From Phoronis australis (taxonomy: Eukaryota > Animalia > Phoronida), in assembly GCA_002633005.1 (NCBI GenBank), contig NMRA01000790.1, forward strand, positions 1 through 64,000: a stretch of 64,000 nt of DNA. The letters are read 5' to 3'. Position numbers and translations under genes: made by a program. Shown here in pieces: positions 13,119-60,308 of the stretch; positions within the stretch are counted from its first letter, which is position 1, and every line of letters starts with the position of its first letter. The notes under the pieces were generated by a model, which saw only the letters and a program-made list of their open reading frames with translations, ran no database searches and was not told the DNA's origin.

Positions 13119-13347
13119 CTGAAGTTATACAAAATGCTAACCATTATCAAGTTTTTAATTGGCAGAAGAGGAGTGGGTAGCTATATAACTGTTGATAACA
13201 CAGGACCATTACGAAGATCAAGGAATGACGGGAGTTTCGCGGCTACAATTGCTGACATTGGAGCACTTTATATTTAAAATAAATCATGGAGTTAAAACTG
13301 AACTGTAGGCAGTAATATGGATGACAAAAACAGTATCAAATCCTTAC

Positions 13348-21570: not shown

Positions 21571-21669
21571 AACGGACGTACTCCACTTCATGCAGCAGTA
21601 TATTTTGGCGAAGCAAGCCACTTAAAGGTACTGCTAGAGCATAATGCCAATGTGAACGCCCTGGATAAG
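21571..21669 (+). CDS. Single-ankyrin-repeat exon E1 (33 aa, phase 0/0)
   Basis: ttttcacag|NGRTPLHAAVYFGEASHLKVLLEHNANVNALDK|gtacag; 99 nt, open. Confidence 0.9.
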
Positions 21670-23963
21670 GTACAGTAGTCATTGTGTGAAATATAAATCG
21701 ACATACGAAGCAATCTGTTGTCTTCTTCTAAAATTGTGTTTACCTCTTGACGTTGGATATTAAGGTTTTATCGAACCTTATATATTGACATTCATTCTAA
21801 CTCATATATCAGTAAAAATATATTTTCTGAAAGAAAATGGTAAAAAATTGCAAAAATATGTTTTATGTGGATGTGCTATTGTATTCATTATGTTAACATC
21901 ATTTTGAATCAAAATTACAAGGAAGATCAATTCCATACCAAAATAACCTCTTAGAGAATTTCAATGAATTCCTTTTTAAATGAAAACATCAACCTCAAAA
22001 TATGTTGTAGGAATTTTTAGTTTACTCTGTTTGTTTTGTTTCTACACCAAAGTTACTCATAAAGCGTAAGATATTTTTGTAAAAATTGCAATCGTATTTG
22101 TCATACATGCAGAGTTCGCAAAATGTAGTTGTTTAAAAACAGAATAGCAACAAAGTAAATGGCAGAATTAATAAAATAACGAAAACGGGTACATTTATGA
22201 AACATGTGGTACGGATAATGGAAATTCTTTGCTGCATTACACTCACTTAAATCATGAGTAACGATTAACATGATTGTGACAGTCAAGCCCAATGTAAATT
22301 CGGAAAATATACTTGAAACAAGCATAATCAAAGAAATCAATTATGATTGATCTAAGGCCCGTCAACATCTCAAACCCCACACACCAAAACCCCCTCGATC
22401 CACAATGCCCTTGACCCCCAACCCACAACCCCTCTAACCAGTCTACGCAAGCTCGACTTTATCTAAACATACAACAAGCGCTGACTTGCAGGAGCACGCG
22501 TCTGGCTGTGAGCTCGGCGGGCTTTTTCCTGTTTTTGAAACTGAGAGAGTTGATTCGGAAAGTTTTAAAGCCACAAAACAGAAAAAACAACCTACGGTCC
22601 CAAATCAAATAATATCAGAGACCCACTAACATTACATATCGTATCGTTCCGGGCAGAGTGTAATCGTCTCGTCTGCTCTTCAGAGAATTACAGGTTCAAG
22701 CTATTTTTGGACATGAGCAGGGGACCACGAATATGTATTGAAAAAAAATCAAGTGAACTAAAAAGCAATCCAGAGTTAGTTTTAGTATTTTGTAAAGGAG
22801 TATACCTCACAAAAATTTAATGAATATGAGAAATTATATGTATACACGTTATTATACACTCTCCCTAAGTTCAGTGCAACAAGGTCAATGGTAGACACTC
22901 GTGGAACTATTTCCCAGGCAGCCTGGAATCTTTATGAAGATTGCCGTCAAAATACAGCTAGATTGTGTACTGAGCCCCCTTAGACCCCGAAATTTCACAC
23001 ATTCCCGTGTAGTTCTGCTCGTAACCTCGTCATTAAACTTAAATCAACACTTAAACCTAACGACCGCTTGGGGTGCTTGCAAAATTAGGAAGTCAACCGA
23101 GACTCATCTTGCTCGGTGAAGCCGTCTTCAAGTGAAAAACAATCTGAACAGCGTCATTTTCTTGCATAAGTCTCTGCCTGTTGCACAAAGAAAATCTGTC
23201 GTCGTTTTCAAAGCAGTACGGTCGTGACACATGCACGTACCATTTCTATAGCGACAGATCCGCAGCAGCAAAATTTATTCTGAAATTTCGTTTGTAACAA
23301 ATGAAACCAGTTAGATTGCATTTTTAATGACCTTAATTTTGTGCCAGATTTCGTTTAATCAGTTTTTACCCACGTCTTTGCCAAGCTGTATATTTAGAAT
23401 ACAGCTTTGCAACAAAGATAGCTACCTCTGTGACAACGACAGAGATCTCACAATCCGCAATTTCTTACGCCACTTTCTATTTTTACCACCAGTCTTGAAC
23501 CAGAGTAGATTTGTTTAGCCAAGTCTTATGCTAAAGTCACTCAATGGCAATGTACTTAAATTAGGCAATGTGAAAAAAGAGTAAGGATACCTCTATCTCA
23601 GCAGGCCGTGGGTCAAAGGGGTTGTGGGTCATGGTCACGGGGTTGTCAAATGTCCTGGTCGAGGGGGTTTTGCAATAATCTGCATAATGTCCTGGGTTGC
23701 ACTTTGGATCTGGCAACTATGAATACTACTCACCTTTTGCATTACAATAGACACATAGTAACCCAGTGTCAAAGATTTTATTACCAGCTTCTTTGGGTTT
23801 GGGGAGAAGTGAGCGAAGACGGGTGGCAATGATAATCGTTTATCATTAGTAGCAGTGATTTCTGCCATTTAAGATAGTACTCAGTTTATTTGTCGGGTTT
23901 CTTACTTTAAATTTTTTACTCCATGCAATTGCGATGTTAACTTGTCTTAATGTTTTTTCACAG

Positions 23964-24062
23964 GTCGGTTGTACCCCACTTCATCGAGCAATTGAGAACG
24001 ATTATAAAAGCAAAGTAGAGGTGCTGCTAGAGCATAATGCCAATGTGAACGCCCTGAATAAG
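23964..24062 (+). CDS. Single-ankyrin-repeat exon E2 (33 aa, phase 0/0)
   Basis: ttttttcacag|VGCTPLHRAIENDYKSKVEVLLEHNANVNALNK|gtacag; 99 nt, open. Confidence 0.9.
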
Positions 24063-27000
24063 GTACAGTAATCATTGTGTGAAGTATAAATCGACATACG
24101 AAGCAATCTGTTGTCTTCTTCTAAAATTGTGCTTACCCCAAATTTTATCTTGAGTTGGATATTAAGGTTTTCTCGAACCTTGTAAATATTGACCTCCATT
24201 CTAACTCATATATCAGTAAAAGTGTATTTTCTGAAAGAAAATGGTCAAAGATTGTAAAAATATGTTTTATTTTGATGTGTTATTATATTTATTATGTTAA
24301 CATCATTCTCAAACAAAATTACTAGGAAGATCAATTCCATACCAAAATAACCTCTTGGAGAGTTTCAATGAACCCTTTTCAAATGAAAACTTCAACCTCA
24401 AAATAGCTTGTAGGAATTTTTAGATTACTCTGTTTGTTTTGTTTCTACACCGAAGTTACTTGCAAAGTCTAAGATATTTTTGTAAAACATTGCAATCGTA
24501 TTTGTCTTACATGTAGAGTTCGCAAAATGTAGTTGTTTAAAAACAGAATAGAAACAAAGTAAGTGGCAGTATTAATAAAATAACGAAAACAGGTACATTT
24601 ATGAAACATGTGGTAAGGATAATGGAAATTCTTTGCTACATTACACTCACTTAAATCATAAGTAATGATTAACATGATTGTGACAGTCAAGCCCAATGTA
24701 AATTAAGAAAATATATTTAAAACAGGCATAACCAAAGAATTATGATTGATGTAAGGCCCCCTCGACCCCTCAAATCCCACACACCAAAACCCCCTCAATC
24801 CACGATGCCCTCGACCCCCAACCCGCAACCCCCTCGACCTAGTCTACGCACGCTCGACATTATCTAAACATACAGCAAGCGCTGACTTGGAGGACCAACG
24901 AGTCTGGCCGTGAGCTCGGCGGGCTTTTTCCTGTTTTTGAAACTGAAAGAGTTGATTCGGTAAGTTTTAAAGCCAAAAAAACAGAAAAAACAACCTACGG
25001 TACCAAATCAAATCAAATCAGAGGCTTACTAACATTGCATATCGTATCGTTCCGGGCAGAGTGTAATCGTCTCGTCTGCTCTTCAGTGAATTGCAGTTTC
25101 AATTTGGACATTAGCAGGGGATCGCAAATATGTATTGAAAAAATGTCAAGTGAACTAAAAAGCAATCCAGGGTTAATTTTAGTATTTTGTAAAGGAGTAT
25201 ACCTCACAAAAATATAATGAATATGAGAAATTATATGTATACACGTTATTATACACTCTCTCTAAGTTCAGTGCAACATGGTCAATGGTAGACACTCGTG
25301 GAATTATTTCCCAGGCAGCCTGGAATCTCTATGAAAATTGTCGTCAAAAATACAGCTAGATTGTGTACTGAGCCCCCTTAGACCCCGATTTTTCACACAG
25401 CCCGTGTAGTTCTGCTCGTCACCTCGTCATTAATGTTAAATCAACACTTAAATCTAACAACCGTTTGGGGTGCTTGCAATATCAGGAAGTCATCCTAGAC
25501 TCATCTTGCTCGGTGAAGTCGTCTTCAAGTGAAAAACAATCTGATCAGCGTCATTTTCTTGCATAATTCTCTGCCTGTTGCACAAAGAAAATCTCTTGTC
25601 GTTTTCAAAGCAGTATGCTCGTGACACGTGCACGTACCATTTCTATAGCGACAGATCTGCAGCAGGAAAATTTGTTCTGAAATTTGGTTTGTAACAAATG
25701 AAACCAGTTAGAGTGCATTTTTAATGACACTAATTTCGTGCCAGATTTCGTTTGATCGGTTTTTACCCACGTCTTTGCGCCAAGCTGTATATTTAAAATA
25801 CAGCTTTGCAACAAAGATAGCTACTTCTGTGACAACGAGAGAGATCTCACAATCCGCCATTTCTTACGCCACTTTCTGTTTTTACCACCAGTCTTGAACC
25901 GGAGCAGATTTTTGTAGCCAAGTCTTATGCTAAAGTCACTCAATGGCAATGTACTAAAATTAGGCAGTGAGTTTTAAGATACTACTCAGTTTATTTGTCG
26001 TTTCGCGTTGTCTCTCTTCATTGTTTGAATGGTAAAATTCAGTGAAATACAAGAAAGAAAAGGGACATGGGACCCACTGCAACTACTGTCTCTTTGTTGA
26101 GAAACCTCAACCTCTATCGGATAGACTTCTTGAGTAACACAGTTGAGCAACATGACTTGCGTGCACCACCCGTTACCATAGTGGATTTAATAACCCCTAT
26201 AAGGAAGCAATGAGTGAACTTCTAGAATTATCTTGAGTTTTGCGGAAGATTAAAAACGAGTTGTGCGAAACATCTATAGAAGATTAAATTAAACAAATGT
26301 GAAGTGAATCAAATAAAGGATGGGAAGTAAAAAGTGAAACAAACACACAGTGAGCCAAAACGATATGTCAGTGGAAAGAATAATTTGACACACAACTTTT
26401 TGTTAATTATTAAAAACGAGTTGTGCGAAACATCTATAGACGAACAAATTAAACAAATGTGTAGTGAGTCAAAAAGTGATGGGAAGCAATTAATGAAACA
26501 AACACACTGTCAGCCAAAACGATATGTCAGTGGAAAGAATAATTTGACACTCAATATTTTTAGAAAACTGTTTGTTAATACTATTTAATAAAAGGTTGGT
26601 TTAATGGGAAGTTAACGTAAATATCCTATATAAAGGCATGACGGACTCGGAAAAAAACACATACCATGGTTGAACGATTTTCACTCTGAATGCAATAATG
26701 CTGAAGGTTTCAAGTGAAAATAGACCGGAAGTGTTACTGTGCACATATATATTCAATAGTTTAAACATTTGTTAAATATCCAATACAAGGCATAAATCAT
26801 CAAGTGAAGACCTTATGTATCATTTCCTATTCCATTACATGTATGTGTTTTCTCTCATTGCATTAAATATACCTGCTTTTGATATTCTAAAATTGCTGCT
26901 TTCGGTATGCAAAAGCATGACATTTTCTTCGTAAACATTTGAAAGCCTGTCACTACGTTCAAACACGGTGATTGGTATATGAGAGACAAACTAGGACCAC

Positions 27001-28301
27001 ATACACACAGTTTTAAGCTGAATGTGAAAGATAACCTCTAGAGAGATTTTTTATTTCTTTTCATTTTCTCGGGAAATACCCCTTAATAGATAATTTCTAT
27101 ACATACATATAGTGACTCCAACAAGTAAGCCTACACGTAGTATGCTTACCGCATGCTGATGATATTGCAGGTATTGCAAGTGCACCAAGACAGTTATAAC
27201 AACGAAAAAAATTGATGAAACGAAATTATGAGATTCAGAAACTGGGATCCTCTAGAGAGCGTTAAAAATTGTCGCGTAATTTCCAAATTGTGTTTAAGAT
27301 TAGCACGAAACAGCAACTTGGGTGAATCTTGCTAAACATTTTTTAGGGCCCCAGCATATAGTGGATAATGTCAGAGAGTTTATCTCTGTACTAAAATTAT
27401 GTGCTTTGCAAAAATGAGAGACAGAAGGAGAGGAGTGGAAGAGAGAGAGAGGGATAGGGAGAGGATAGGGAGACATGTATTCTCGCAACAAAACTTCTTT
27501 CAAGCAAGTCTCATTCAACGGCAAGCTATTTTCTACTTTCCTAAGCTGCACGCATATTTTCTTGAGTTGCCGGGCAGCACGTCTAGTCCCGCTGTCTAAT
27601 TCGCACATGAGAGTTCCAAAACTCATAACACCAAGTGGAGACAACTTCGATTCGTAGGTACATGTATTAATATGTGTAACGTTATGTGAATATGTATATG
27701 TATCTTATATACATGTATGTATATAACCCCTTCACAGAGGACCAACATACAACAGACTGAAATACATACACAAAACGTATCGAGAGTGGCATAGATGAAA
27801 TTATTGCGAGACATTAATCAGCTTATCAAGAGACACCAAACTAAAAGACAAAAGGGCTTTTCATCGGTTTTTAGGCACTTGCATTGACCCATTGAACTCT
27901 AAAAACCACTGTCGGGCAGTTGAGCATCTTTCATTCAACAAAAACCGCTGTCTGTACATGTTTGTGTGTTGCAGGGAACATTTCACCTTAAAAATGTTTT
28001 GGCTTAGACCCAGATGCCCAGCTTTGTACCCCCATGTCCCGCTTTTGATTCAATTGTTCCCTTTTTGGTTGTTGAACGTTGGCCGTGACAGTTATGCAAT
28101 AGGTGTCCAAAATAACAATGACTCTTTTAATAAGTATTGTTGTTTTCCAGAGTCCACTTTCTTTAGTACATTGCAATCATAAAAATTAAATTTTGTTCCA
28201 CTGTGTCTTGGTTACGATATCATACATTACATGCATCAGGATCAAAAACTTTAATTTTTCGTAGGAAATAGTTGATGTCTATACTTTTCTGGAAAGACCT
28301 G

Positions 28302-28549
28302 GGGCCCGTTCCAACAAAACTGACTTAGCTAAGACAAATCTTAAATTTTAGTAAGTTTTAAGATAAGACTTAAATTTGTCTCGAAACCGTTTCAAGAAAG
28401 AGATCTTAAGTTTGAATTAAGTTTTTGATAAAAGTTTTGTCTTAATTTTAACTATCTTACCGGATATGGAAGTTTCAAAGTATGGAAGTTAAGACAAATC
28501 TTAGACTTAAGTCAAAAATGAACTTAAGTCAGTTTCTTGGAACGGGCCC
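28302..28549. mobile_element. PIF/Harbinger-type MITE (248 bp)
   Basis: TIR GGGCCCGTTCCAA(C/G)AAA(A)CTGACTTA. 3-bp TSD CTG at 28299-28301 and 28550-28552. Empty site 'aatacctgcact' in paralogs at ~31401 and ~53806. Confidence 0.85.
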
Positions 28550-30103
28550 CTGCACTATAACTCGCGTGATGACTTATCCACCTTAGATGTACCTTTCAAA
28601 ACTAGGTGATGGATGCTGCATACTTTCGATTGATTAGAAAACCTTTACTTCCAAATTTGAGATAGAAACTTGGAGTAGCTTATCTTGTTTTTTTTTGTAA
28701 ATATCACTCCTTAAAAATTGCATTTGTGTCGAACCGCACCAAAAGTCTAATTAATTATAATATATTAACAGTCGTAATGGTTTTGCTGTTCATTTTTATA
28801 ACACATTTCTGTTTCATTTCCAATTTTATGTCAATATTACACGCTGATATTTTTTCATATTTTGGTAACAATCTTGGTTTTTAGAAACAATAAAAAATAA
28901 ACTGATTAGTTATGTCGGTAGGTCAGTTACTGTATCTACGTTCAGTTGAGAGTAGAGTTTTGTTCCGAAAGTATGAACGCAACGGAATAAAGACTGAACA
29001 AAGAAAAGTGTCGTGCATTTAACAGATTCTGTATAGTTATGCAAAATGAGTTTTTTTGTATTTTCTTGCTTCTATTATAGTCATCAGGAGGTGACAATGG
29101 GCTTTATGTGATATGACAAGTCGGTTGTAAAACGATAGAGTTCCAAAAAGTTTAAAGGGCCGTAAATCCCGTTACACACAACGGAGCAAAGGAATGCAAA
29201 TAACTATCTCTCCAAGATCGGTGTTGTCATTCCAGGGAAAGAATTTCCTGTATTGCGTTAGTATTATTACGAGAAATTTGATTTTAACATTCAACTGCCT
29301 TTCCAACAATCAGGATTTTTCGTTGGTAAACCACCATTGGTATTAAGCTAAAATAATTTCTTTAGTTAAACCTTCTACTGCTACTATTACCGATCTAAGT
29401 CCCACTGGATGCATGACATTATTATGCCCTACAAGGCATTTTGGAACGGACAACTATGAATGCTTCTTACCCTACTTGGATTATAATAGACACAGTGTCA
29501 CGAGTTTAATTTCCAAATTCTTTCGTTAGATTTTATTTCATTGTTTCAATGTTAAAATTCAGTCGACTACAACACATGGCAACTACCGTCTTTTTTCCGG
29601 AAGCCTCAAGGTAAACCTTCTTGGGCAAACACAAATGGGCAACATGACTTAAATACATCACCCCTTACCGGTGTGATCTTAATAACCCCTCAGAAAGCAG
29701 TAAAGTTCGAGAAAAACGTGATTGATTTGTGCATATGTTTAGCAGACTACAGCGACAATTGGCAACATTACCTCCACTAAACTCATAAAGCGCAACAGAC
29801 ATTGTTGGTTGAGGGCTAAGATCAATCTAGCTTTAAAGCCTGAGAACCAAGTATGTATTCTCAGATGTAGAAACAATTTTTGTTTAATATGAGTAACTAC
29901 CACATACATGTATATTGCATGTTTTTGCCAAGAAATTTCCTCATCTTTTGATGTTATTAATGCTTGTCTTTCGCATCCTTGCTCAACTTCAGAGGGCAAA
30001 ATGGGAACACATTAGACTAAAAATTGCTTTCAAAAGGATTTCTTACCTTAATTTTTTACTCCATGCAATCGCTATGTTAACTTGTCTTAACGTTTTTTCA
30101 CAG

Positions 30104-30202
30104 GACGGTAGTACCCCACTTCATCTAGCAGCTATACGTGGACCCACAGGCATAGTAGAGGTGCTGCTACAGCATAATGCCAATGTGAACGCTCAGGATA
30201 AG
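30104..30202 (+). CDS. Single-ankyrin-repeat exon E3 (33 aa, phase 0/0)
   Basis: ttttttcacag|[33 protein letters not shown]|gtacag; closest to the ankyrin consensus. Confidence 0.92.
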
Positions 30203-30262
30203 GTACAGTAGTCATTGTGTGAAGTATAAATCGACATACGAAGCAATCTGTTGTCTTCTTCT

Positions 30263-31335
30263 GTTGAATTTTGTAACATTGGGATTGTTGTAGCTCCATG
30301 CAGGCAAATATCGTTTCCTAAGGACATCGTAGATTGGGCATTCGATAACAAAATGATATTCTGACTCGACATATGTCCTAACACAGAGAGTGCATAACCT
30401 TTCTGTTCTACCCTTTTCAATCATTAGTGGATGCACTGAACATCTCAATCTTACAATATCAGATCTAACATTTACATTGTCAATTACAACTAAATAGTTT
30501 TCAAAACATAGATTTTACTTAAAAATTCTGTAAGTTTCCAGCTTAAACGAATTGTTCAAAATATTTTGCCATTTTTGCTGATCAATATCTTTGCATCTTT
30601 GATTAAAAAGTGATATGAAGCTTGTCTCAGAACCAACACCCTGATAATACCATGCTTCTCCAAAACCAAACTGAAATAGCAATTTCTTAACATCATTAAC
30701 CCAGCACGGTTTATTAACATTTTCCGTCATGTTGTACTGCCATTCAAAGCTATGATATGTAATTTTTGACTCATCGGTTCTTAATAGTTTTAACCAATAT
30801 TTCATACTTCTAGGAAGTCAGTAAGCAATCAAGGAGTAACGACCCATCTCACCTCTAGCAGTCGATGAAATTGCCGTGCTAGGCAAATTTAAAATTTCTT
30901 TACACAATTTTATGTGGACTATTTCAATACATTCGTAATCAATAAAACCCCAGATCTCACAGCCATAATGAAGTATCGGCAATATTTTACAATCGAATAA
31001 TTTTAAACTAACTTCAACAGAGAGTGCATTAAGACCATTGACATTTTTTCTCATTAAATTCACTGCCTTAGTAGCCTGTAATGATAGTGTTTTCTCTGCG
31101 CAAGACCACGAACCTTTCGTGGTAAACATTATCCCTAGATGTTTATATGCATTTACTATATTAACAGTATTCCCATCATACGTCCATTTTTCATACGATC
31201 GTAACATTCCACCTTTTCTGAAAACAATTATCTTAGTCTTCGACATGTTAACGATCAATTTCCATTTCTGACTATACTCATATAAAATGTTCATTTTTTT
31301 CTTCAGTCCTTTCACACTATAAGAAAATAAAACAT
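30263..31335 (-). mobile_element. Non-LTR retrotransposon (LINE) ORF2 fragment, RTE-X-like, truncated at both ends and disrupted
   Basis: Post-YADD RT region LYEYSQKWKLIVNMSKTKIIVFRKGG...YKHLGI...LFDCKILPILHYGCEIWGF, then KYWLKLL, and a C-terminal CTLC...EYHFVIECPIYDVLR zinc knuckle. Split over several ORFs. Clade assignment is tentative. Confidence 0.85.
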
Positions 31336-42094: not shown

Positions 42095-42942
42095 AATATT
42101 CCCATTCTTACAAATTAATAAGATGTTCCCCGGCACAGCAGTCACGATATTCTGCCGACAGATCAAGACTGGGTTAAACAGCCTATACATGTAGCAGTTA
42201 CGTAAATAGCAATGGTAGTTAAATTTCAGAAGACTGGAAATGACTTCTTTATTAAAGACATACTTATGCAGTTTTACAATTGTAAAATGAAGAACCCGTT
42301 TATTAGGCAATTATGTGAATGAAGCTCTTATTTCAAAAATAGAATGGAAGGAAGGGCTGGAAGTGGGAGACAGGATGTTGTGGAAGTGGTAACACGCCAT
42401 TGTTTAAGAATACTGTCTGATGCTGCAATAAAACAGAATCTGTATCAAAGGGTGGTCGATGAAATAATTAGTTTCTATGTTTTTTGGGTGTACGTCGTTG
42501 TTGTACTGTGGCGGCAAAGTCAATTGAATTTAAGCGATTAACGTGTTTCTCAGACTGGAATCGCAAAATACACAGAAGGACCTCCTTTTCCACAACAATA
42601 CATTCTTTCCTTTTTCATTCTTGTTTTTGGTTTCGTCCCCGTTAGTATGTACACCCTAATTTTAGCAGTCAGTAACCCCTGTTGAAGAAAGTTTTTTGTT
42701 TAGAGGGCATTTGATAATGGATTTTTACAACAAGAATTGTTAAAGAAAACCTAGAACTTGCAGACTGGATTTTTAGAATATTTTTCCTAACTTACAGTGT
42801 GTTATTGCGATGTTGGCGCAGAAATCATGTAATTACCGTGAGCTAATATCTGTAAATGCAGCACACTCAGCAACGTCCATTAAAATGACTCCTTATTGAT
42901 TGTAGATCACCCTGACTTGAGCACCTATTTTGTAATTCACAG

Positions 42943-43050
42943 CGCGGTCGTACCCCACTTTTCGAAGCAGCAGGAGCAAGCCTTTATTTCACTGAACCCA
43001 ACATGAAGTTGCTGCTAGAGCACAAAGCCAACGTGAATGCAGTGAATAAG
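42943..43050 (+). CDS. Single-ankyrin-repeat exon E4 (36 aa, phase 0/0)
   Basis: taattcacag|RGRTPLFEAAGASLYFTEPNMKLLLEHKANVNAVNK|gtagga; 108 nt, open. Confidence 0.87.
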
Positions 43051-44573: not shown

Positions 44574-44991
44574 ACCATCACCACCACCACCACCACCAAT
44601 GTCCACCGTCATCATTATCACCATCATCATCACATCATCAACATCACCGTCATCATCACCATCGCCAACATCATCATCGTCATCATCATGATCATCATCA
44701 TCATCACATCATCAACATCACCGTCATGATCACCATCATCATCATCATCATCATAATCATCATTATCATCATCATCACCGTCATCATCATAATCATCATT
44801 ATCATCATCATCACCGTCATCATCATAATCATCATCATCATCATAATTATGATCTTCATCATCGTCATCACAATCATTATTACCATCATCATCACCACCA
44901 TCATCATAATCATCATCATCATCATCACCATCATCACCACAACACCATCACCGCCCTCACCATCACCATCATCATCATCAGCACCATCATC
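44574..44991. repeat. Imperfect (CAT/CAC)n trinucleotide microsatellite
   Basis: catcatcatc... seen directly; it explains the poly-M and poly-I ORFs. Confidence 0.95.
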
Positions 44992-47900: not shown

Positions 47901-50732
47901 GTGAACTTCTAGAATCACCTTGATTTTTGCAGAAGATGAAAAACGAATTGTGCGAAACATCTATAGACGATCAAATTAAACAAATGTATAGTGAATCAAA
48001 TAAGTCACGGGAATAATTAGTGAAAGAAACGCACTGTGAGCCAAAACGATATGTCAGTGGAAAGAATAATTTGACACTCAATATTTTAAGAAAACTGTTT
48101 GTTAATACTATTTAATAAAAGATTGGTTTAATGGGAAGTCAACGCAAATATCCTGTATGAAGTCATGGCGGATTCAGAAAAAAAACACATACCATCGTTG
48201 ACAGAATTTCACCCTGAATGCAATGTTGGTGAAGGTTTCGAGTGAAAATGAACCGGCAGTGCTACTGTGCTCATATATATTCAGTTGTTTAAAAACATGG
48301 TAAATATCCAATACAAGGCAAAATTCATCAAGTGAAGACCTTACACTGTATGTATCATTTCCCATTCCCATTATGTGTTTTCTCTCATTGCATGAAACAT
48401 ACCTGCTTTTGATATTCTAAAATTGCTGCTTTCGGTATGCAAAAACGTGACATTTTCTTCATAAACATTGAAAGCCTATCCATAAGTCCAAAGCGGTTAC
48501 TTGTGTATGAGAGTCACACTAAGGTCACATACACAAAGTTTTAAGCTGAGTCTGAAAGATGACCTCTAGAGATATGTTCTTATTTCTTTTCATTTTCTCG
48601 GGAAATAGTCCTTAATAGATAATTTCTGTAGATACATATAGTGACTACCACATGTAGGCCTACATGTAGTATGCTTACCGCATGCTGATGATATTGCAGA
48701 TATTGCAAGTGCACCAAGACAGTTATAACAACGAAAAAATTGATGAAACGAAATTATGAGGTTCAGAAACTGGGATCCTCTAGAGAGCGTTAAAAGTTGT
48801 CACATAATCTCTAAATTGTTTTTAAGATGAGCTCGAAACAGCAACCTGGGGGACTCATGCTCAACATTTTTTAGGGGCCCAGCATATAGTGAATAATATC
48901 GAAGAGTTTCTCTCTATACTAAAATTATGTGCTTTGCAAAAATGAGAGACAGAGGGAGAGGTAGAGGGAGAGGAAGAAGGAAAGGGAGATATTTGTACTT
49001 GCAAGAGAACTTCTTTCAAGCAAGTCTAATTCAACGATAAGCAAATATTTTCTTGATTTGCCGCGCAACACGTCTAGTCCCGCTGTCTAATTCGCACATG
49101 AGACTTCCAAAACTCATAACACCAAGTGGAGACAACTTCGATTCATAGGTATTAATGTGTGTAACGTTAAGTAAGTATGGATATGTATCGTATATATGTA
49201 TATAACCCCTTCACAGAGGACCAACATACAGCAGAGTGAAATACATACACAAAACGTACCGAGAGTGGCATAGATGAATTCTTTGCGGACATTATTCTGC
49301 TTATCAAGCGACACAAAACGAAATGAACAAACTTGACATTTCCTCGGTTTTTAGGCACTTGCATTTACCCATTCAACTATAAAAACCGCTGTCGGGCGAT
49401 TAGGGCACCTTTCATTCAACAAAAAACGCTATCTGTACATGTTTGTGTTTTGCAGGGAACATTTCATCTTTAAGAGTGACTCCATATAAAAACCAACAGC
49501 TAGAGTCTATATCCAAAATGACAGATTTTTTTAAACTTAGCACATTAGTTTGGTTTGTTAAGATGTAGAAAAACCTTACTTTTTAGAATATTCATTTATT
49601 ATTTCTCTTTTGATGACCTGTAACTACATTTTGCGTCAAAATTTAGCGTCGAAGTAGGCGTGTTTGAATGCATTTTACTAAGGCGTATGGTAAGGTCAAC
49701 ACAATTGATTGATGCGAATTGAAAGGGTAATGGGTGAATAATTTAATGGCATAACTTTCAAAATCCATTTTTAAATATGTATGTCTTGATTTTGTAAGGC
49801 AAAAATGGCTATGTTGCAGGTTTTCGCTGAAGCCAGTTTCGGCCAAATTTGGAACTCTGTAGCAGCCATAACGCACCTTTCCAGAAATTGACCTTATAAT
49901 AATTTGTTCAGTCATTCCTAACCTGTTCATAATCTAAAATAAAAAATCTTGCCTCTACAGTAGTTTGTGCCTACGAAGCATTACAATCTGTCCTATTTGC
50001 ATGTTCTCAGTTGTCTCTGCAACCGATAGAGGGCTCTTGGAACATATAATTAGCTTGCAAAACACGACAGAAAAACCTTGTATTTTGAAGAAAAGGCATA
50101 CAGCATTACTAAATACCATTCACTGAAAACGACATTGATGATTATTGCTTATTACAAAAATATGTACGTAAATCTACTGGCATGCGTGCTTCTTAATGAT
50201 AGATGACACAGTAACACGAACCGTAACACGAGGACCTTGCTTTAATTCAAGACTTCGCGAGATATTGCCCTGCATTTTAAATGTGAACACGTGGTTTTGG
50301 ATAAATTTTAGAGAGGTTCTAGTGTTACTGAACTCATCGCTGCCTTACTCTTGTTTTCTATCTGCCTTGTTCAAGCCACAGGCAAAGGAAGGCACCCAAG
50401 CTGGATATGGCCCCCTGTTTAGAGCAAAAAATCCTTCAACTCGTCAATAGTCATTGTAACTTTGAGTTCATATTGTAATGTCCCTGCTGGTTGCTACAAA
50501 TTTTAGTCGCCACCAGTCGCCATAAATCTGGTGTTCCCCCCACTCACCGGGCACGCTAACGCTCAATATTTCTGACATTGTCATCATCAGTGGTATAAAA
50601 AGGCTGAAACGTTCCCAGTCAATAGAAAATAATTCACGAGAGACAATTTTATTAATGACTCACTCATGACAGACACGAAGTAAACAGAAGTAACGGTCTC
50701 GACTTCATAGCAAACACACTGAGTGACTGACT

Positions 50733-50786
50733 CTGTGGCGTAGCAAGGGGTGGTCAGTGGGGCCCAAGGTGCTCGCTATGCCACTG
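50733..50786. mobile_element. 54-bp hAT-like mini-MITE nested in Sola3
   Basis: TIR CTGTGGCGTAGC / CAGTGGCATAGC. 8-bp flanking duplication GACTGACT / GACTGTCT with one mismatch. Confidence 0.5.
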
Positions 50787-52099
50787 GACTGTCTAGTGTA
50801 ATTGCATCTCAACTGCAAACTATAATTAACTACGATAATACATATAACATATGACGAGCACGGTAAAACTCAAATTTTGATAAAAACAAGCTACTATTAA
50901 CATATCGATATCTCTGTTCCTCTTTCACTCTCATAACTGCTTTTAATTCTGTACAGCCACATTTCCACCCTCGGCTACTAGGACACATTTTGCCCCTGAC
51001 GTGGCCACCACAATTTCACAATAGACCAGCACCTGGCAATCCTCAACCACTGCCTCTCACCTAATTTGCACTCGGCCGCCACTGATTTCTGCCCCCTGAT
51101 GCTACCCATTTGACTCAAGTTGCAACTTACACTTGTTTCGGCCATGGACCATTCTGTCTCTCACAACCAAACACTAAGGCCCTGGCCACTATTCATTTGG
51201 GCCTCAGCAGCCAGTCATTCAGCCCCTGGCCAGCATCCATACTGACTTGAACTCTTCCTAGCTACCACTCATTCTCCTTCAGATGCCACCCACTTGTTTC
51301 AATTCATCCAAACCCTTATGATGTCGATATTTATTTGTGTTTCTAACAGATCACTAATTGTTAAAATGATACCAATACCTAAGAATGAACACATCTTAAG
51401 ATTTTTCATAACAAGATAATCCAACTAATAACTAAACTTCAACTTTTGTGCACTCTCAAGCACAGCTACAGACACGTGACAATATATGTACTTCCACTTT
51501 TAACTTTCCTGCCCATTTGGTTAAAAAACTTTCGTAAAAGTATCCTATAAGTTATTACCATATAGTTACTTGAGCTGAGCTGTAGATATTGTCCATTTTA
51601 TAATTCCGAGTTTTGTTCTAAATTCCCTCACTGATCGATGCGAGTGAAACAAAATTAACAATCCAAAACTGCTACAAACCAGCTGCTGACCTTCACCAAC
51701 CAGTCATAATTACCAGCAACTACACAAGACAAAGAAAGCACCAATTTCAAGAGCTTCCCATATCTTTGACTGGTTGTTATGCTACAAAACTAGGCTAAAC
51801 GTTGAGCTCATTTACCACTTCATTCAGTAAATCTGACGACGTAACAGCATCTTCAGCAGAAATAGAATCATCACCAGCATTGCTGCAGACAACCTCAAAA
51901 ATCCACCAATTTGCTATTCACTAAACATCACAGGTAAACATTTTCCCAGTGGGTTTTCGTAATGTTTTCTCCATTTTGGCACTTCCGAGGGTGAACGTTT
52001 TTATCTGACTTATCTCCTTCATCGAATATGTTCGTCATTCGTCTCATCCACACTGTACTCTGAGGCTGCGTCAATTGACGCTCCGGTTCTTGTATCTGA

Positions 52100-52735
52100 A
52101 AGCATTTCTGACCACTGTCGTGCGATGTGGTCATACGTGGTATTCCTCAGTAAATGTTCGGTGTGGTTATCTAATTCTGCGTCTGTAGCAAAAAAATCGA
52201 CCAACCTTGCTGGGTACAAGGGAACTTTTGTTGAGGCTCTTCACTAGATGCAATGCCAACCTTAACTCTTCGTGTTGAAAACCCGCCATGTCTAGAGATG
52301 TGTATTTTAGAAAAATAGGTTTCCCATTTTCTCAGTATTTGTAAGAAATTACCGTCACCTACATGGAATGATTTCCACACGCAAATTCCTTGGGTGGAAT
52401 AGTGGGAATTGGGGAATGTGCTTATACCAGGAACTGAGTGTTTCGGAAAAGACTTTGTTGCATTGACTGAATATGCATACACATACATGTAACATCCCTT
52501 CACACGGCCACTGGAAAGTAATGCATCTTTCAAATCCAGAAAGTTTATGATATTGTTATCTTCGGCTACAAAGTACTTCGCATGTTGTTTGAGTGGAGCA
52601 GTCTTGCGATCACAGAGATTCTTTCCATTCTGACTGTCACTAAAGTCATATCTCGAAACAGAAATGCCGGTAGAATGTGACAAGGCAGGAGGAGAGGATC
52701 AGAGTGGTAACATCCAGCATAACCTGACTCTTCCA
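52100..52735 (-). pseudogene. Sola3 transposase fragment
   Basis: SGYAGCYH (degenerate SDNAGCYH), then RYDFSDSQNGKNLCDRKTAPLK and a later C...GW...F...ELDNH zinc-finger-like part. Frameshifted. Confidence 0.75.
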
Positions 52736-55653
52736 TCACTGGTCCTGTTCAATCAGAAATTCACCGACTCGGGGTAGTACGAATCCGTACTCTGGCACAG
52801 GCCTTGCTTTGTGAGGTACTTTCCTGTATTTCAAATGTTCAGTGGTGTCTTTGACATGACTCACTAAAGCCCAAAGCTTTTGTGATAGTATTTTTTGCAG
52901 AATAAACTCTAAAGGGACATGAAGTTTGTTCAAATGGTCTGTAAACTCTGCTCGTCATTTCCAAACCATTAAAATAAACAGTTTTGCAAGACAATTTTCA
53001 CTAAAGTGTAAACTTGAGGCAAGATTTTTTATTGCTCAGTCATCAAGACTAACTCTTTAACTGTATGTTCTAAACGTCCCATAAGGCTACAAGGTGTTTT
53101 ATGGCATTAAGAAGGTCACAAAAACGGCCACTAAATTAGCCCCAAAATGTGGTTTGGGGATTATCTCCCCTGTCTAGCACAACTCTCAGATTTTAATAAA
53201 TGGCACAAAATTATGCAAGGTATACGTTGGTTATTTCAGCCACCAAAATATAGTTTTTGATCTATTTTGTATGTTACTCAATTTTGTTGCTGAAAACAAT
53301 ACGATTTTTGAGACGGCTAATATGCCCAATTGTGCCACTTTGTGTTCTCATGCTCCAACGGCGAAATTAGGGGTTATTGAGTGCACAGAAATTGGCATTT
53401 GGGTTTTTGTTAGGATGCCTACCCATGTACAAAAATTAAATTGTTTTGCATTTTGACTTATAGACTGATTTTTGAAAATCTACTGTTTTTTATATGGACT
53501 GCCTCTTAACTGATTTGGCTTGGACCCAGATGTCCAGCTTTGTACCCTCATGACCTGCTTTTAATCCAATTGTCCCGTGCTTTCGTTCTTGAACGTTGAC
53601 CGTGACAGCTACGCAATAGGTGTCCAAAATAAAAATGTCTCTTGTAATAAATATTGTTTTCAAGAGTCCACTTTCTTTAGTACATTGCAATCAAAAAATT
53701 AAGTTTTGTTCCACTGGGTCTTGTTTACGCTAGCATGCACTACATACATCAGGATCAAAAACATATATTTTCTGATGGAATTAGTTGATTTCTAAGCTTT
53801 TTTGAAATACCTGCACTACAAATAGCGTGATGATTTATTCACATTACACGTACCTTTCAAAACTACGTGATGGATTCCGCACACTTTCTGTTGTTTAGAA
53901 ATACTTTAATTCCAAATTCAGGATAGAATCTTGCAACAGATTATGGTATTTTTCGTAAATATTACTGCATTAAGAATATAATATGGTGTCAAACCGCTCC
54001 AAAATGCAATTAGTTATAACATATTAACATGTATAATTTTGGATGAATGCCTGACTAAATCATCCATAGCAATGTGACGGATTTATTTTCTTAATCGCTT
54101 GTGTTTGTAGGGTAGACATCTTTTGAATCAGGTGTAATGGCTTTGCTGTTTATTTTTATAAGACCTTTCTGGTTTATTTCCAATTTTATGTTAATATTTC
54201 TCGCTGCTATTTTTCATATTTTGGCAACACTCTTGGTTTTTAGAAATAATAAAAAATAATTTAGTCTCGTACTCAAAATGATAATTTATGAATTAATTTT
54301 TGCTTCTGGTATAATCGTCAAAAATGACTATGGGCTTTCTTGTGATGTGGCAATTTGGTTGAAAAATGATGGAGTTGCAAAAAGTTTTAATGCCACACAC
54401 AGGAGCAAAGGAATGCAAACAACTCTCACGCAGGCGCAGCGTGCAACCTCAGCGGCTGTGAGATTGGGGTTGGCATTTCAGGGAAAATTTTCTTTGTATT
54501 GCAGTAGCACTATTATAGCAGATTTGATTTTAACATTTGCGTCTAACCGATGCGTGGGCGTTGGTGACCCTGCCTGTCCAAAAAAACAGGATTTTTCGCT
54601 AGTAAATAACCATTTGTATGAAATGTATTCATTTAGTGGTCCCAGTTAAACAAACGTGCTTTTGATACAATAACGATCTAAGTCCCATTGGATGCATGAC
54701 GCATTATGCCCTACAAGGCATTTTTGAACTGGCAACTATAAATATTTCTTTCCCTAATTGGATTACAATCGACACAGTGTCAGGATTTTAATTTTCAACT
54801 TCTTTTCTTGAATTATTTTCATTGCTTGAATGGCAAAATTCATTCGACTACAACACATTGCAACTACTGTATGTTGAGAGGCCTCAACCTCTACTGGTTA
54901 ACCTTCTTGAGCAACACAATTGGGCAACTTGACTTACATATACATGTAAGTGGACGTCCAATTACCAGAATGATTTTTATACCCTCTCAGAAAACAGTGA
55001 AATTTAGTAGAGCTGGGCTATTGGTAGCCACTTGGGAACTGTTTCCGTGACAACCATAGCGGGCTCACAATGCGCCATTTCAGATCACGTTCTCACGCCA
55101 TTTTCTGTTTTCAATCACCATACTTGAACCAGAGCAGGCTCGCTTGTAGGTATGTCTTATGGGAAAGTCACTCAGCGAGGTAATAAGATTATAAAATATG
55201 AACAAAACAAAAAAATGCCTAAATTGCCACAGGTCGTGAGTCGAGGGAGCGTGAATCGGGAGGGGGGGTTGTCTAGGGGTGTTGTGGTCGAGGGGGTTGA
55301 GGGGACTTTAGAGAACAATCCGTAGAATACATGTATGTCCTAAAATACAAATGTCCGGTCATAATTACGCACAAATTTTGTAATCTTAAATGCAGTCCAC
55401 ACACAGGCCTATCCTAGAACAAGTAAATCCTGAAACGAGTTGCCGCTATCGTAGCTTGTAAAATGTGTGGACGCTATTTAAAGGCTAATGCCACCCGATT
55501 TAATTAGTCTTTTTTACCGTCTTAATCGGTCTGGGGCCACATCGGCTCGTACACGGTCGACCTTACCTTGTCGAGAGGTGTCGCGTTAGCCTGTGAGGAA
55601 GGTAAGAAAGTCCGCAGCGACGTCAGTGGTTCGTATGCAGAGTGAATTCCGCC

Positions 55654-56013
55654 ATGGTGTGGTGTGTCGTTCCTGCCTGTTCGAACTATGAAGCGGCGAG
55701 GAAAGCGGGTACATCGTTTTTTCGATTTCCTCGAGAGCCCGAAATGCTTCGGAAGTGGCTCGCGGCAGTGAAAAATGACAAGTACGGAGTTCATACCAAG
55801 TACGAGGCCGTGAAACATCTCCGTGTCTGTGGCCGACATTTCGTGGACAGTGATTTCACTGACGAATTCCGGCTTGCCAAACAGCTCATGCCAGGGCAGA
55901 AAAAGCAACCGAGGCTGAAGTCAGATGCTGTGCCTAGTGTGTTTGCGTTCGGCAGGCAGGAAGCAAAGAAACGTGGATCAGTTGTTTCCATTATGGTGCA
56001 GTTAGCGCACTGA
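55654..56013 (+). CDS. THAP-domain ORF (truncated Kolobok transposase)
   Basis: gccATGG Kozak context. MVWCVVPACSN...FFRFP...W...VCGRHF...LKSDAVPSVF is a complete THAP domain. It runs into antisense KolX sequence and stops. Confidence 0.8.
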   Translation: MVWCVVPACSNYEAARKAGTSFFRFPREPEMLRKWLAAVKNDKYGVHTKYEAVKHLRVCGRHFVDSDFTDEFRLAKQLMPGQKKQPRLKSDAVPSVFAFGRQEAKKRGSVVSIMVQLAH

Positions 56014-56200
56014 CACCATGAGACGGTTTTCGGAACTATCCATGTGCTCCATTGTTTGTGCACGTTCACGGCGCCTCTCTAATACTTCTTGATCAGTGTA
56101 CTCTAGCTGGTTCGAACTGATATCCTGAGAAAACTAACGATCTACCTGGGAAGTCTTCGTCAGATGAGTACTCCTCCAAGTCGGGATTGCGAGTTGCCAT
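55981..56200 (-). pseudogene. KolX: KolX 5' remnant
   Basis: MATRNPDLEEYSSDED...GYQFEP/EYTDQEVLERRR.../SWCQCANCTIMETT, with two frameshifts; truncated at the deletion junction. Confidence 0.75.
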
Positions 56201-56751
56201 GTTGACGTTTATTACTAAGCGTTCTGTTTCAAAATGAATTATTCTCACCCTAACCAATACTTATATATAAAACTGAAAGAAAGTGTGTCCCATTAGATGC
56301 AATTTGTAATGCCTTTGGAGTGTTCGTGAGTGCAAATGATTTGAGAAGCCAGCAATGAATAAATCACTGCGTTACCGGCTTTAGGTGCAATAAAACTAAT
56401 TTGACCGGACACCGAGGCCGTGTGAGCGCAAGCAATTCAGTGTTTGCTGACAGAATCTGTTGTGAAACAATAACTCGATATTCCATCCCACGGCCAGGTG
56501 TTAGGGGAATCTTTGTTTACTTATACATTATTCAAATAATGATTGTCAATGTGCAGCTTCTGCCCTGGCGGTTCTGTGGCCAAACGGGAACCTGAATTCA
56601 CGGCCCCCGACGAGCAGGCCTTAGTAGATTTGCAGTTTCGTGGCTTCACCAAAATAATCACGTGCACACTACTTCTTTAGCTCACTAGTATAGTACTTTC
56701 TTGACTTCAAGCTTAGTTTCCAACTTTGGCTGGTTAGTGTTCGTGATGTCT

Positions 56752-56860
56752 TCAGTCCGGTCGCGACGGGCCTGATTGGGTTCCGAGCCACTGGCCGGGA
56801 TAACGAGTCAGTCCGGCCGCGACGGGCCTGATCGGGTTCCGAGACACTGGCCGGGATAAC
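56752..56860. repeat. Two-copy GC-rich direct repeat, 56-bp period
   Basis: tcagtccgg(t/c)cgcgacgggcctgat(t/c)gggttccgag(c/a)cactggccgggataac at 56752 and 56808. Confidence 0.9.
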
Positions 56861-59800
56861 AAGCGTTTTTTGTGTTTAGAACTAAAAACACAAGTCTAAA
56901 CAACACAGATCTAGGTCCTACTGTCTGTATTTCACGGAAAAATACTTAGAATTTATCTCCGAACAGAACAAGAACTCCTGATACGGACCTTGGTAAATTG
57001 GACTGCCGAAATTTGTTGGCTACGGTGTGTCCAAATATCAATAAATCCGTAACAGTGAAATAAGACAACACGTTTTTATAAGAACTCGGTGTATTTTTAA
57101 GGGTTTTACATCGATGTTTGATCATTCATTGGTGTTAAACGATGAGTTCAAGCGATAAGCTGACACCAGTTACCCGTGTTGTGAACTGCTGAACAGACTG
57201 CGTGTGAAACCGATGACGTCAGTGGAAAATTTCATCACCTCCGTCTGCCGTCAGGTGTCAGGTAACGCAACCGTACGTGCCGCTATCGAGGAGAACTACT
57301 CGATCTAAATTGATACAAATTAGGTTGTTTTTTGGGTGGCATGCTCCTTTAAACTGTCTAATAAATTACCTCGCTACTTACTCCACGTTTTCGATGTAGG
57401 GTAACTAATGCTCCTACGCCGCTTTTAATCGTTTTGAGGTCGCAAACTATGGTAAAACGTAAGTAATTATTAGTTTCGTATTCTTGTCAGCTGTCCATTG
57501 TCATGCACAGTGCGACAACTCAGGTTCCGCCTTACCGTTGTTATCGAAAATCTGCGTGAATCTGTTTCTTCTCGGCTTAAAAGTCGGATCAGTTGCACTT
57601 GTGCAAATTATTATGGAATATACTGAGTGCAGGTGAGACTGTATGATCAGCAGATTTTGATACACTTTAAAACGTCAAAGTTTTCATCACGTCGTTATTC
57701 TGTTTTTTTAAAGTAAAGACATGCCAACGAAAGGATATAGCGCAAGTTATCTACAGTAACTGTGGTCCTAAAATCAGAACATCTCATTCACACGAAAGTT
57801 CTCGAGAAATTTGCAGTGCCATTCTATGTGAACTACCCATGTTGCGCATACTGTATATTCGTTCATACCATTAGTCATCCGTATTCTTCGGAGACCCAAT
57901 TGCCCCATGGGTAATGCAATGGCACATGAGAGAAATGCGAGAAATAAATTTTACTCGAGAATGCGTTGGATTGTTTTGCTCTATTATGTCTTACATCAGT
58001 CACAAATTCAGTGAGGTTCACCTTCTTTCCTCTCGTTCAAGTTATTATTTCCATCAAGTGTACTAAAATTACACGTGTAGGTCATGTAACCTCACTTAAA
58101 TGTGCAGTGATTGCTGCAATTTTTTCAATAGTACATCTAGGTTATAATTCTGTAAAAAATTACTAAACTTCCAAGGAGTTTTGTTCAACGGAGTTGAAAT
58201 CTTTAATTGTTAATTGCCTCTTCTCCAAGTCTGTTTTGAGTAGTGTTCATTACAACGGTTTAAACATGTAATTGCCAAGGATTATGTAACTTGTAGATAG
58301 CACGATTAAAGTATTGGATTTGGGACTGCATTGATCGAGATCACGTGTACATTTTGGATCTTGGCCACACGTCAACATGTTGAAGTGAGGACCTTGTACG
58401 GTTTCAGATGTGTCAACAGTTTTTGTTGAATCCACAATTTTTACATCAGTATGGGGCGTGCCATTTAGAAAATTAGGACTTTTCGAGTACCATGGGTCAT
58501 GTTTTTAGCCTTCTAGTGTGAAATCAATCATAGATATTTTACGATTTGTATGCAGCAGTGAATCTATGTTTGATGCAAGGGTCCCCTACATTGGGCAATT
58601 GCTAATAACCTGCAATCCGTGCAAAAAACGAGCTTTTTCCTTAAAACATTTACCGCTACAAAATTTGTGACAATTAGTTCTTCTCATCCCGCATGAGAAT
58701 TGTACACGTATTACAAGCTGAAGGCGTGAACGTATCACGAAGCAAAGCCATTCTCTAAGGGCATTACTGACCATTTGATGAGGAGGGACCTTACAAAAGA
58801 AAGCATGGACAATACATGGGAATGATGGAGTTGTGTGCATCATTGCAAATATTTATAGCGAGAGTAAAGTTAATAAAACTTTCGCGTTCAACTCCCAACA
58901 AGACAAGGACGTTCTGTAACATGATCTGAAGAGATTACAAAATAAATGTTCCGTCCTTGACATTATTGTGCGCCTTTTTATTCCTTCCACGTCCGTCTTA
59001 TCCCAAGTCTATGCCCATATTACATGATGCACGTTTCGCTGAAATCTGCCGTTGTTTTCAAATAAACCATCCCGCCGAGAAACTGTTCGTCATGAAGTCT
59101 GAACACTATGGGTTACATTATTAGCTTAGAGATTTTCATTTTGAGAATTTTTAAATAGCATATTTATACGTGATATCAGACCTAATTAACATTTTAAATG
59201 TTGAAAACCGATAATAAGCCTGATTTTAAAGGTTAAGAAGATAGCTTGCTTGAATATAACCCTACTTCATTGATATATTCAAATTAAAAAGTGTTGAACA
59301 TTAGTTGCACATTTGGCTCTCGACTGTGAAGTATCAAAGACAGATGACGACGGTATCGTAAAATTCGTATGAAATTCAATCCGGAAATTTTATCGACAAT
59401 ATTCTCATTCTTACAAATTAACAAGAGGTCCCACGACAGATCAAAAATGGGATAAACAATCTAAACATGTAGCAGTTACGTTATTAGCAATGGTAGGTAA
59501 ATTTCAGCAAACTTGAAATGACTTCTTCATTACTGTTTTTTGGTATTGTGACGTACTTTTGCAGTGAAGCCTTATTTTTTCAAAAAAAGTGATGGGAATA
59601 TGGGGCTGAAAGTGAGATGCAGGATGTTGTGAAAGTGGCAACACGCCATTGTTTAAGAATACTGATACTGTAATAAAACAGAAGCTGTATCAAATGGTTG
59701 TTGGTGGAAAATGAAATTTCTATATTTTTTGGGCGTACGTTGTTATAGTACTGTGGCGGCGAAGTCAAATCAATTTAAGCGATTAACTAACTTCTCAGAT

Positions 59801-60194
59801 TGGAATCGCAAAGTGCAAAGAAGGTCACCCGTTTCTAAAACAACCCAATCCTTCCTACATGTAATTCATTGTTGTTTTTGGTTTCGTCCTCGTCAGATAT
59901 TACATCCTACACTTAGCAATCAGTAACACCTGTTGAAGAAATTTTTCCTTTAGAAGGTGTTTTATTTGTGATTTTTTGCAAAATAAATTGTTTAAGCAAA
60001 CCTATAACTAGCACATTGGAATTTTTATGAATATGTTTGCTAACTTACTGTGTTCTATTGCGATGTTGGCGCAGGAATCGAGTAAATACCGTGAGCTAAT
60101 ATCTGTAAATGCAGCACACCCAGCAACGTCCATTAAAATGACTCCTTATTGATTGTAGTTCACCCTGACTCAATACCTATTTTCTAATTCACAG

Positions 60195-60308
60195 AATGGT
60201 TGTACCCCACTTCACGCAGCAGCACCAGAGAAACCATTCCTGTATTACTACCCAGAACGGGTAAAGTTGCTTCTAGATCACAAAGCTAACGTGAATGCAG
60301 TGGATAAG
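60195..60308 (+). CDS. Single-ankyrin-repeat exon E5 (38 aa, phase 0/0)
   Basis: taattcacag|NGCTPLHAAAPEKPFLYYYPERVKLLLDHKANVNAVDK|gtagga; 114 nt, open. Confidence 0.87.

Follow-up and report, generated by a model that had tools for sequence, protein, structure and literature searches.

The ways in which invertebrates produce varied recognition molecules are a standing question. Brown algae are already known to have shuffled receptors with one exon for each repeat, and fungi to have selected ankyrin arrays. The Ectocarpus ROCO-LRR and NB-ARC-TPR proteins are presented, in the portions available of the two accounts, as candidate immune receptors (PMC3341825; PMC11378527). For the fungal ankyrin NLRs, the available part of the source assigns the sites under positive selection to the beta-hairpin and to the inner helix (PMC4986451).

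The locus described here lies in a stretch of 64,000 nt (the window, in whose positions all coordinates are given). Like the Ectocarpus genes, so far as the partial account describes them, it has one repeat per phase-0 exon, with gain and loss through rearranged intron-plus-exon segments; unlike the LRR and TPR repeats treated there, those here are ankyrin repeats, in what is likely an animal genome (PMC3341825). We think it fairly probable that the window falls in the middle of a gene family with many copies, in which a one-exon-per-repeat ankyrin binding domain is diversified in the germ line under selection for changing targets, the product being a putative recognition, and probably immune, protein.

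Cassette exons and their duplicated intron blocks

A reading made from the sequence only had proposed five open exons of phase 0-0, bounded by AG and GT and each encoding one ankyrin repeat. This was borne out: E1-E5 all lie on the + strand, with cag immediately upstream and a terminal AAG followed by gta, every length is divisible by three, and 5/5 match Pfam Ank PF00023 above its gathering cut-off of 21.1 (scores of 23.9-44 bits). Three exons of 99 nt are of type A, namely E1 (21571-21669, +; 33 codons, phase 0-0), E2 (23964-24062, +) and E3 (30104-30202, +), the last having its upstream intron in common with E1. Two are of type B: E4 (42943-43050, +; 108 nt, 36 codons), which has three extra codons in the helix 1-helix 2 region, and E5 (60195-60308, +; 114 nt, 38 codons), which has five. 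The exon-end pattern is matched five times in the window, where 100 shuffles gave an expectation of 0. When the two strands of the window were searched with profiles, no sixth cassette appeared, no reversed or inactivated cassette in the introns, and no ankyrin exon in the 21.5 kb that precede E1; Rfam gave 0 matches. A transposon-like ORF lies upstream in the window. A structure model of a single repeat, with a pLDDT of 62, was too poor for use. Ankyrin genes commonly have each repeat in an exon of its own, and our literature search found no paper on this point.

E2 sits in a duplicate of E1 and its downstream intron that is 2.1 kb long and has a period of 2.4 kb, 21503-23570 being 90% identical to 23897-25969. 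On a larger scale, a first unit (22221-44437, unstranded) comprises an intron block with E2 and E3, followed by satellite arrays and the E4 block; it is collinear at 81-86% with a second (46257-61687, unstranded), which ends in the E5 block. The second copy is without the 2.06-kb E2 module, 47191-47687 directly joining 47643-48087 and skipping 23896-25957, and without the 3.0-kb E3 module, 53508-53813 joining 53743-55466 and skipping about 28302-31336. The presence and absence of E2 and E3 show cassettes being gained and lost together with duplicated intron blocks, which supports this part of the earlier proposal, and such exon gain and loss between paralogous segments is a mark of exon-shuffled receptors of the Ectocarpus type. 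That E1 and E2 are two haplotypes assembled in series was judged unlikely, because no N lies between the copies, because they diverge by 7.7% as against 1-3.5% in an N-bounded upstream duplicate, and because RNA contains joints from type A to type A. On the diversifying-family reading, unequal exchange between the repeated intron blocks would add or remove repeats while leaving the frame unshifted.

Divergence of the cassettes and probable selection

The counts given in the sequence-only reading were reproduced. In the three pairs among E1-E3, the first 60 nt of the downstream intron differ at 2, 1 and 1 positions, whereas codons 10-17 (a hypervariable block at 21598-21621, +, in E1, corresponding by alignment to the last part of helix 1 and the turn that leads into helix 2) differ at 15, 16 and 16 of 24 nt. 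The rest of the exon differs at 7-12 of 75 nt, a comparison for which the 24-nt block was chosen after the fact. Between E2 and E3 there are 14 amino-acid differences and one synonymous codon among the 19 conserved. Across E1-E5, codon 3 (CGT/TGT/AGT/CGT/TGT) and codon 8 (GCA/CGA/CTA/GAA/GCA) vary at positions 1-2, with position 3 fixed.

The contrast between exon and intron survives against a corrected baseline of 8-13%; the value of about 2% implied by 60 nt was an understatement. The long E1/E2 intron block diverges by 7.7% (114/1482 sites), the E1/E3 upstream intron by 11.9% (68/573) and the block shared by E4 and E5 by 11-17%. Along the E1/E2 block, differences per 60 nt range from 2 to 9, with 2 at the low end.

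Six face codons were picked after the DARPin design. At these codons the three E1-E3 pairs show non-synonymous differences at 7/14, 7/14 and 7/15 sites; tested against intron divergence of 0.077-0.12, this gives P values of 3e-5, 5e-4 and 1e-3, for pairs that are not independent and with an assumed baseline for E2/E3. Framework codons carry non-synonymous differences at 1-2 of 40 sites, which is below intron divergence for E1/E3 (1/40, P 0.04) and not significantly lower for E1/E2 (P 0.18). On our preferred reading, purifying selection would preserve the stacking framework, and with it the compatibility of the cassettes, and positive selection would change codons 1, 3, 8 and 10-18. Among these codons is the turn that follows helix 1, which varies in length as well and would enlarge the usual concave binding face.

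A rival reading, which we consider unlikely, dispenses with positive selection: an old, weakly constrained surface would have been left to vary while patchy gene conversion homogenised the framework half and nearby intron, so that the face of an ordinary scaffold protein would only seem accelerated. Whole-exon dN/dS agrees with it, being about 1-1.5 and not significant, with dN above dS by Fisher test in none of the three pairs (P 0.28-0.77). Framework synonymous divergence from E1 (3-4 of 14 sites) also exceeds intron divergence, though not significantly (P 0.08-0.09), and set against it the face test becomes weaker, with P values of 0.015 and 0.08. Furthermore, third positions differ as well in codons 11-14 of E2 and E3, and the face is more variable than the framework in 8/8 comparator arrays with enough repeats (8 of the 10 examined). 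These points must be set against E2 versus E3, where framework synonymous differences occupy 1/14 sites and face non-synonymous ones 7/15 (P 4e-5), and against E1-like RNA reads that retain E1's private silent base in codon 2 yet differ from it at 8-12 positions; the listed variants matching the counts of those reads are all non-synonymous.

More generally, 3 of 31 RNA variant entries on E1 are synonymous, where a fraction of 0.25 was expected (P 0.034); for codons 1-18 the count is 1 of 21, with a P value of 0.018, and 13 of the 31 fall in codons 10-17. Omission of three entries (3 reads, one run only), which have as many supporting reads as a 1-nt insertion there, shifts the two P values to 0.061 and 0.037. 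The site-change bias originally claimed is supported as a non-synonymous excess in the variable half; whole-exon dN/dS is not significantly above 1.

Transcription and splicing of the cassette family

Members of the ankyrin cassette family are transcribed, and in the RNA one cassette is spliced to the next, head to tail. Three RNA runs under the same species label, of which about 19% each was read, place 138 reads on E1 (46, 50 and 42), all from one strand; first-mate depth on + is 0 in 28/28 bins. Reads of E1-like cassettes begin and end at the E1 splice sites, and RNA depth is 0 in 9 bins upstream of the exon. Among the 17 loose-end entries listed (of 18) for these reads, all are other ankyrin cassettes and none is a non-ankyrin neighbour exon; cassettes of this family are therefore spliced into a tandem-repeat mRNA, with joints of 99-nt period in 22 reads and one contig. 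One repeat per phase-0 exon with tandem splicing, here seen in family members, is again the Ectocarpus-type arrangement. E3-like reads likewise lie on a single strand in 3/3 runs (position 30149).

The expectation that spliced transcripts use these cassettes thus holds for the family. E1's own variable base, the reference base at 21605, appears in 0/50 RNA reads, and that of E3 at 30149 in 0/45, which points to other alleles or paralogs as the source of the reads. A multi-copy family is likely, being supported by four bases at position 2 of E1 codon 8 within run X6 and by DNA run X1, where three contigs across the variable block depart from the reference and additional depth is free of their changes. 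The same variant types recur in two or three of the three RNA runs, which fits germ-line copies.

It is rather improbable, in our judgement, that alternative splicing, whether by skipping or by mutually exclusive use, makes a further choice among the cassettes, one locus giving many combinations as in Dscam or the brown-algal ROCO genes. Such choice would be helped by the phase 0-0 of every exon and by the likeness of the splice sites, and type-A ends do join E5-like starts (4, 13 and 11 reads in the three runs, with 1-2 mismatches to E5 in 30 nt), though type-B E4 precedes E5 in the window. However, another haplotype or paralog explains this join equally, because the block before E5 has empty type-A slots. 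The same neighbours also recur across runs with matching counts (for one upstream end, 4 reads in X6 and 7 in X7), which fits a fixed order, and type-A cassettes are joined both to one another and to type-B-like ones, which is not the pattern of mutually exclusive, Dscam-like use.

Improbable as well is that the family is real but the window copy silent, recently dead, or pieces of more than one gene: the missing window bases at the diagnostic sites, introns packed with transposon fragments and satellite, and the lack of an ankyrin exon upstream of E1 in the window, when in RNA another cassette precedes E1-like exons, would suit this, yet 5/5 exons keep an open frame and intact splice sites despite 8-17% intron divergence, the E1/E3 framework is constrained as given above (E1/E2 not significantly), and the RNA came from other samples, DNA run X1 likewise being without the E3 reference base.

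Family searches and comparison with known systems

Protein searches returned generic ankyrin proteins only, with no family member or orthologue; among 271 retrieved proteins, the ranking listed no repeat above 44 bits on the exon profile and no annotated family member. An Atlas look-up of E5 gave only generic ankyrin clusters, and metagenome contigs yielded 0 matches to the DNA pattern of the exon ends. Among the titles and abstracts found, in a search that covered a minority of subscription papers, none concerned a hypervariable ankyrin family of animals with one exon per repeat.

A bolder reading, which we regard as speculative and unlikely, would make the array part of a large, individual-specific cassette library in an animal, with the turn after helix 1 as a CDR-like loop varying in sequence and length; exon shuffling and alternative splicing would then yield a repertoire of intracellular receptors, comparable to Dscam or VLR but made of ankyrin repeats. 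For the diversifying family that we favour, the array lends itself to testing and supplies natural sequences to those who design ankyrin binders, an interest limited by similar arrays in other invertebrates and protists.

Several features can be set beside described systems. First, Ectocarpus repeats are under diversifying selection according to the available text, and such selection may act on the cassettes here, as supported by counting tests that weaken with harsher baselines; unlike what that text reports, the window has no reversed or dead cassettes and no ROC-COR or NB-ARC domain was seen (PMC3341825). Second, the locus resembles fungal NLRs such as Podospora Pa_3_8560, as far as the sections available describe them, in its conserved ankyrin framework and repeat-number variation, and differs in that each repeat is a separate exon within multi-kb introns (PMC4986451). 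The high-conservation class defined in those sections requires repeats more than 85% identical, which E1-E3 fail (13-14 of 33 residues differ); variation here also goes beyond helix 1 into the turn that follows, and neither NACHT nor NB-ARC was seen (PMC4986451). Indeed, 0/11 other ORFs scanned in the window match a NACHT, NB-ARC, nSTAND or effector domain.

Third, the top-scoring animal arrays include Haliotis caspase-nSTAND3-ANK (Haliotis rufescens XP_048241358.1), Haliotis nSTAND3-ANK and Lingula ANK-TIR (Lingula anatina XP_013388856.1). These share a conserved framework with strong variation at positions 3, 11 and 12, to which some arrays add 1 and 8, a likeness that may go no further than the ankyrin fold. 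Variability at positions 13-17 is 0.13-0.52 in eight comparators, compared with 0.87 in E1-E3, the latter from three sequences only. Fourth, as in DARPins, in the excerpts available of their description, the modules are self-compatible units of 33 residues in which the framework is fixed and residues of the beta-turn and helix 1 vary (PMC8683736, PMC8229355). The proposed DARPin-like face accounts for part of the variation; the most variable codons, 13-17, depart from it, since positions 13-19 are nearly fixed in the DARPin repeats aligned (PDB 6mol, 5leb) and hypervariable here, with insertions of 3 and 5 residues. By analogy, the array may work like the brown-algal one-repeat-per-exon receptors and the fungal ANK-NLR arrays. 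It would add to these a locus, likely of an animal, whose cassette family is transcribed and in which the two designs come together, with visible gain and loss of exons and a loop that varies outside the usual binding face.

Ankyrin exons and the intron blocks that carry them

Five forward-strand exons each encode one ankyrin repeat: E1 (21571–21669), E2 (23964–24062) and E3 (30104–30202), all 99 nt and referred to as type A, and the type B exons E4 (42943–43050, 108 nt) and E5 (60195–60308, 114 nt). All five are preceded by cag, followed by gta and a multiple of three in length, and each exceeds the Pfam Ank cut-off. E1–E3 have acceptor and donor flanks in common and E4/E5 have a separate common set, with 3 (E4) and 5 (E5) extra residues between the helices. 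The counts made on these exons in the sequence-only reading were all reproduced, and DNA and protein profile searches revealed no sixth cassette on either strand of the window.

The exons are carried by repeated intron blocks. The E2 module duplicates E1 plus 2 kb of downstream intron (90% identity), E1 and E3 share upstream intron (~85%), and a large unit, 22221–44437, is repeated at 46257–61687 with 81–86% identity. The latter copy is without the 2.06-kb E2 and 3.0-kb E3 modules, the alignment running straight across both. The window thus itself records cassette gain or loss, which bears out the earlier claim of cassette duplication; since every exon is phase 0-0, the frame is preserved. We infer unequal exchange between the intron blocks as the cause.

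The introns are large and of the GT-AG type, and they hold fragments of THAP and RT-like transposons as well as arrays of satellite, a setting that points to a likely invertebrate animal source. THAP or Cys-rich/transposase-like ORFs lie at 1675–2079 (+), 14227–14997 (−), 18168–18611 (−) and 55606–56013 (+); two contain a THAP domain and the others have no Pfam match. They presumably resemble Kolobok-type DNA transposon genes, and one search found no relatives. At 7667–14619, duplicates that are 96–99% identical, contain transposase-like ORFs and are delimited by single Ns at 9724 and 11246 are probably two haplotypes placed in series by the assembler. Upstream of E1, an ORF fragment that we take to be Gag-like (19766–20188, −) has no Pfam match. 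A SINE-like or MITE-like repeat of 250 bp and very high copy number (28299–28550) has much RNA from both strands and no Rfam match. Directly behind E3 sits a broken RT-like (LINE) fragment (30212–31348, −), copies related to which give RNA from both strands; the likeness of E3 to the downstream intron of E1/E2 stops at 30262. A satellite (34147–42031) lies in the E3–E4 intron; its units measure ~364 bp, contain 17-bp near-palindromic motifs and form two arrays of opposite orientation.

Selection and the position of variable codons

The neutral baseline of the sequence-only reading proved too low, as the shared introns diverge by 7.7% (E1/E2), 11.9% (E1/E3) and ~13% (E4/E5; both flanks pooled). 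Codons 1, 3, 11, 12, 31 and 33, which we take to be the face positions of DARPin design, nevertheless carry non-synonymous differences at 7 of 14–15 sites in each pair, an excess over intron divergence with P values of 3e-5 to 1e-3; the pairs are interdependent, and a baseline of 0.12 was assumed for E2/E3. Framework codons differ at 1–2 of 40 sites. With the E1 framework synonymous divergence as baseline the face test is weaker (P 0.015 and 0.08). Among RNA variant rows, 3 of 31 are synonymous versus 0.25 expected (P 0.034), and 1 of 21 within codons 1–18 (P 0.018); these values become 0.061 and 0.037 without three rows that are possible alignment artefacts of 3 reads. Over the whole exon, dN is not above dS (P 0.28–0.77), which counts against selection. 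A rival account, in which the variation is neutral and conversion has acted on the framework, would sit well with the whole-exon result and poorly with the face-codon excess, and is improbable. Judged from these substitution patterns, positive selection on the cassettes is likely, and the locus is probably under diversifying selection.

Alignment to solved DARPins places codons 1, 3, 8, 11 and 12 on the beta-turn and inner helix, the same surface that is under positive selection in Podospora NLR ankyrin repeats (PMC4986451). To this extent the suggested DARPin-like face stands. Codons 13–17, however, show hardly any change among the DARPin repeats aligned and are variable in the window cassettes, the variation being 0.87 in E1–E3 (three sequences) versus 0.13–0.52 in those comparator arrays (8 of 10) that contain sufficient repeats. 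The lengthening of E4/E5 falls in this segment, and RNA contains additional versions of it. This loop is the most distinctive feature of the locus and a candidate ligand contact; a single-repeat structure model was uninformative on it. Three unnamed proteins among the protein-search matches (P0144, P0146 and P0160) have up to 62 matched ankyrin stretches; repeats of 33 and 35 residues alternate in them, and their insertion falls at the helix1–helix2 position at which E4/E5 are lengthened.

Tandem-repeat mRNA of the cassette family

Four DNA runs contain 0.28–0.33 of the window's sequence words, and three raw RNA runs that carry the species label of these DNA runs were baited with E1 at 80% likeness, ~18–19% of each being covered. 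The RNA runs gave 46, 50 and 42 E1-matching reads, all of one strand, which would be sense for a library of the usual stranded type. No depth is present in the 9 bins upstream of E1, and directly past its end depth drops from ~24–31 to 2–5. All 17 listed of the 18 loose-end rows are ankyrin cassette sequence (4 preceding-repeat ends, 8 extensions into a following repeat, 5 alternative variable halves), with no attached non-ankyrin domain among them. Joints with a 99-nt period occur in 22 reads and one contig, and 4, 13 and 11 reads join a type-A end to an E5-like start (1–2 mismatches in 30 nt). Thus, members of the cassette family are made into tandem-repeat mRNA.

The E1 base at 21605 is carried by 0 of 50 reads, and the E3 base at 30149 by 0 of 45 and is absent from the DNA run X1 too; the matching reads stem from other alleles or paralogs. 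Tandem splicing is accordingly a finding on the family rather than on E1 and E3 themselves. Codon 8 position 2 shows four bases within one RNA run (one or several animals), and X1 (likewise one or several animals) has three non-reference contigs plus further depth over the variable block of E1, codons 10–17; the family is therefore likely multi-copy. We consider combinatorial splicing in addition to germ-line diversification unlikely. That the locus is a silent copy, as the missing E1 and E3 bases might suggest, is slightly less likely still. The tandem joints rule out strictly mutually exclusive use of cassettes in the family, and recurrence of the same variants from one RNA run to another speaks against somatic diversification.

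At 21670–21770, 5, 1–2 and 2–3 reads per run continue into the downstream intron (upstream, 0); they differ at six positions, one altering the in-frame stop at 21676, and may be splicing intermediates or the terminal exon of a paralog. At 21638, three reads of RNA run X5 exit the exon ~nine codons early, in frame into another cassette start, which reflects either a truncated cassette or misalignment.

A probable germ-line-diversified family and its known counterparts

The observation is real, and the locus is expressed as a family. On balance, we favour as reasonably probable the reading that it is part of a family of ankyrin binding proteins diversified in the germ line. Repeat number and order would then change as blocks are duplicated and deleted, purifying selection would hold the framework in a form that lets cassettes stack together, and positive selection would rewrite each repeat in its first half. 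By analogy, an immune role is putative, in line with Haliotis caspase-nSTAND3-ANK and nSTAND3-ANK and Lingula ANK-TIR, which are among the top-scoring arrays and whose likeness lies in the ankyrin fold.

We do not file the locus, known from its ankyrin exons, as an NLR, since its repeats fall short of the 85% internal identity of the highly conserved NLR repeat class (PMC4986451). No animal ankyrin case of such design was found in the largely open-access literature searched. The design matches that of the Ectocarpus ROCO-LRR and NB-ARC-TPR genes (PMC3341825; PMC11378527) and that of the ankyrin arrays under selection in fungal NLRs (PMC4986451).
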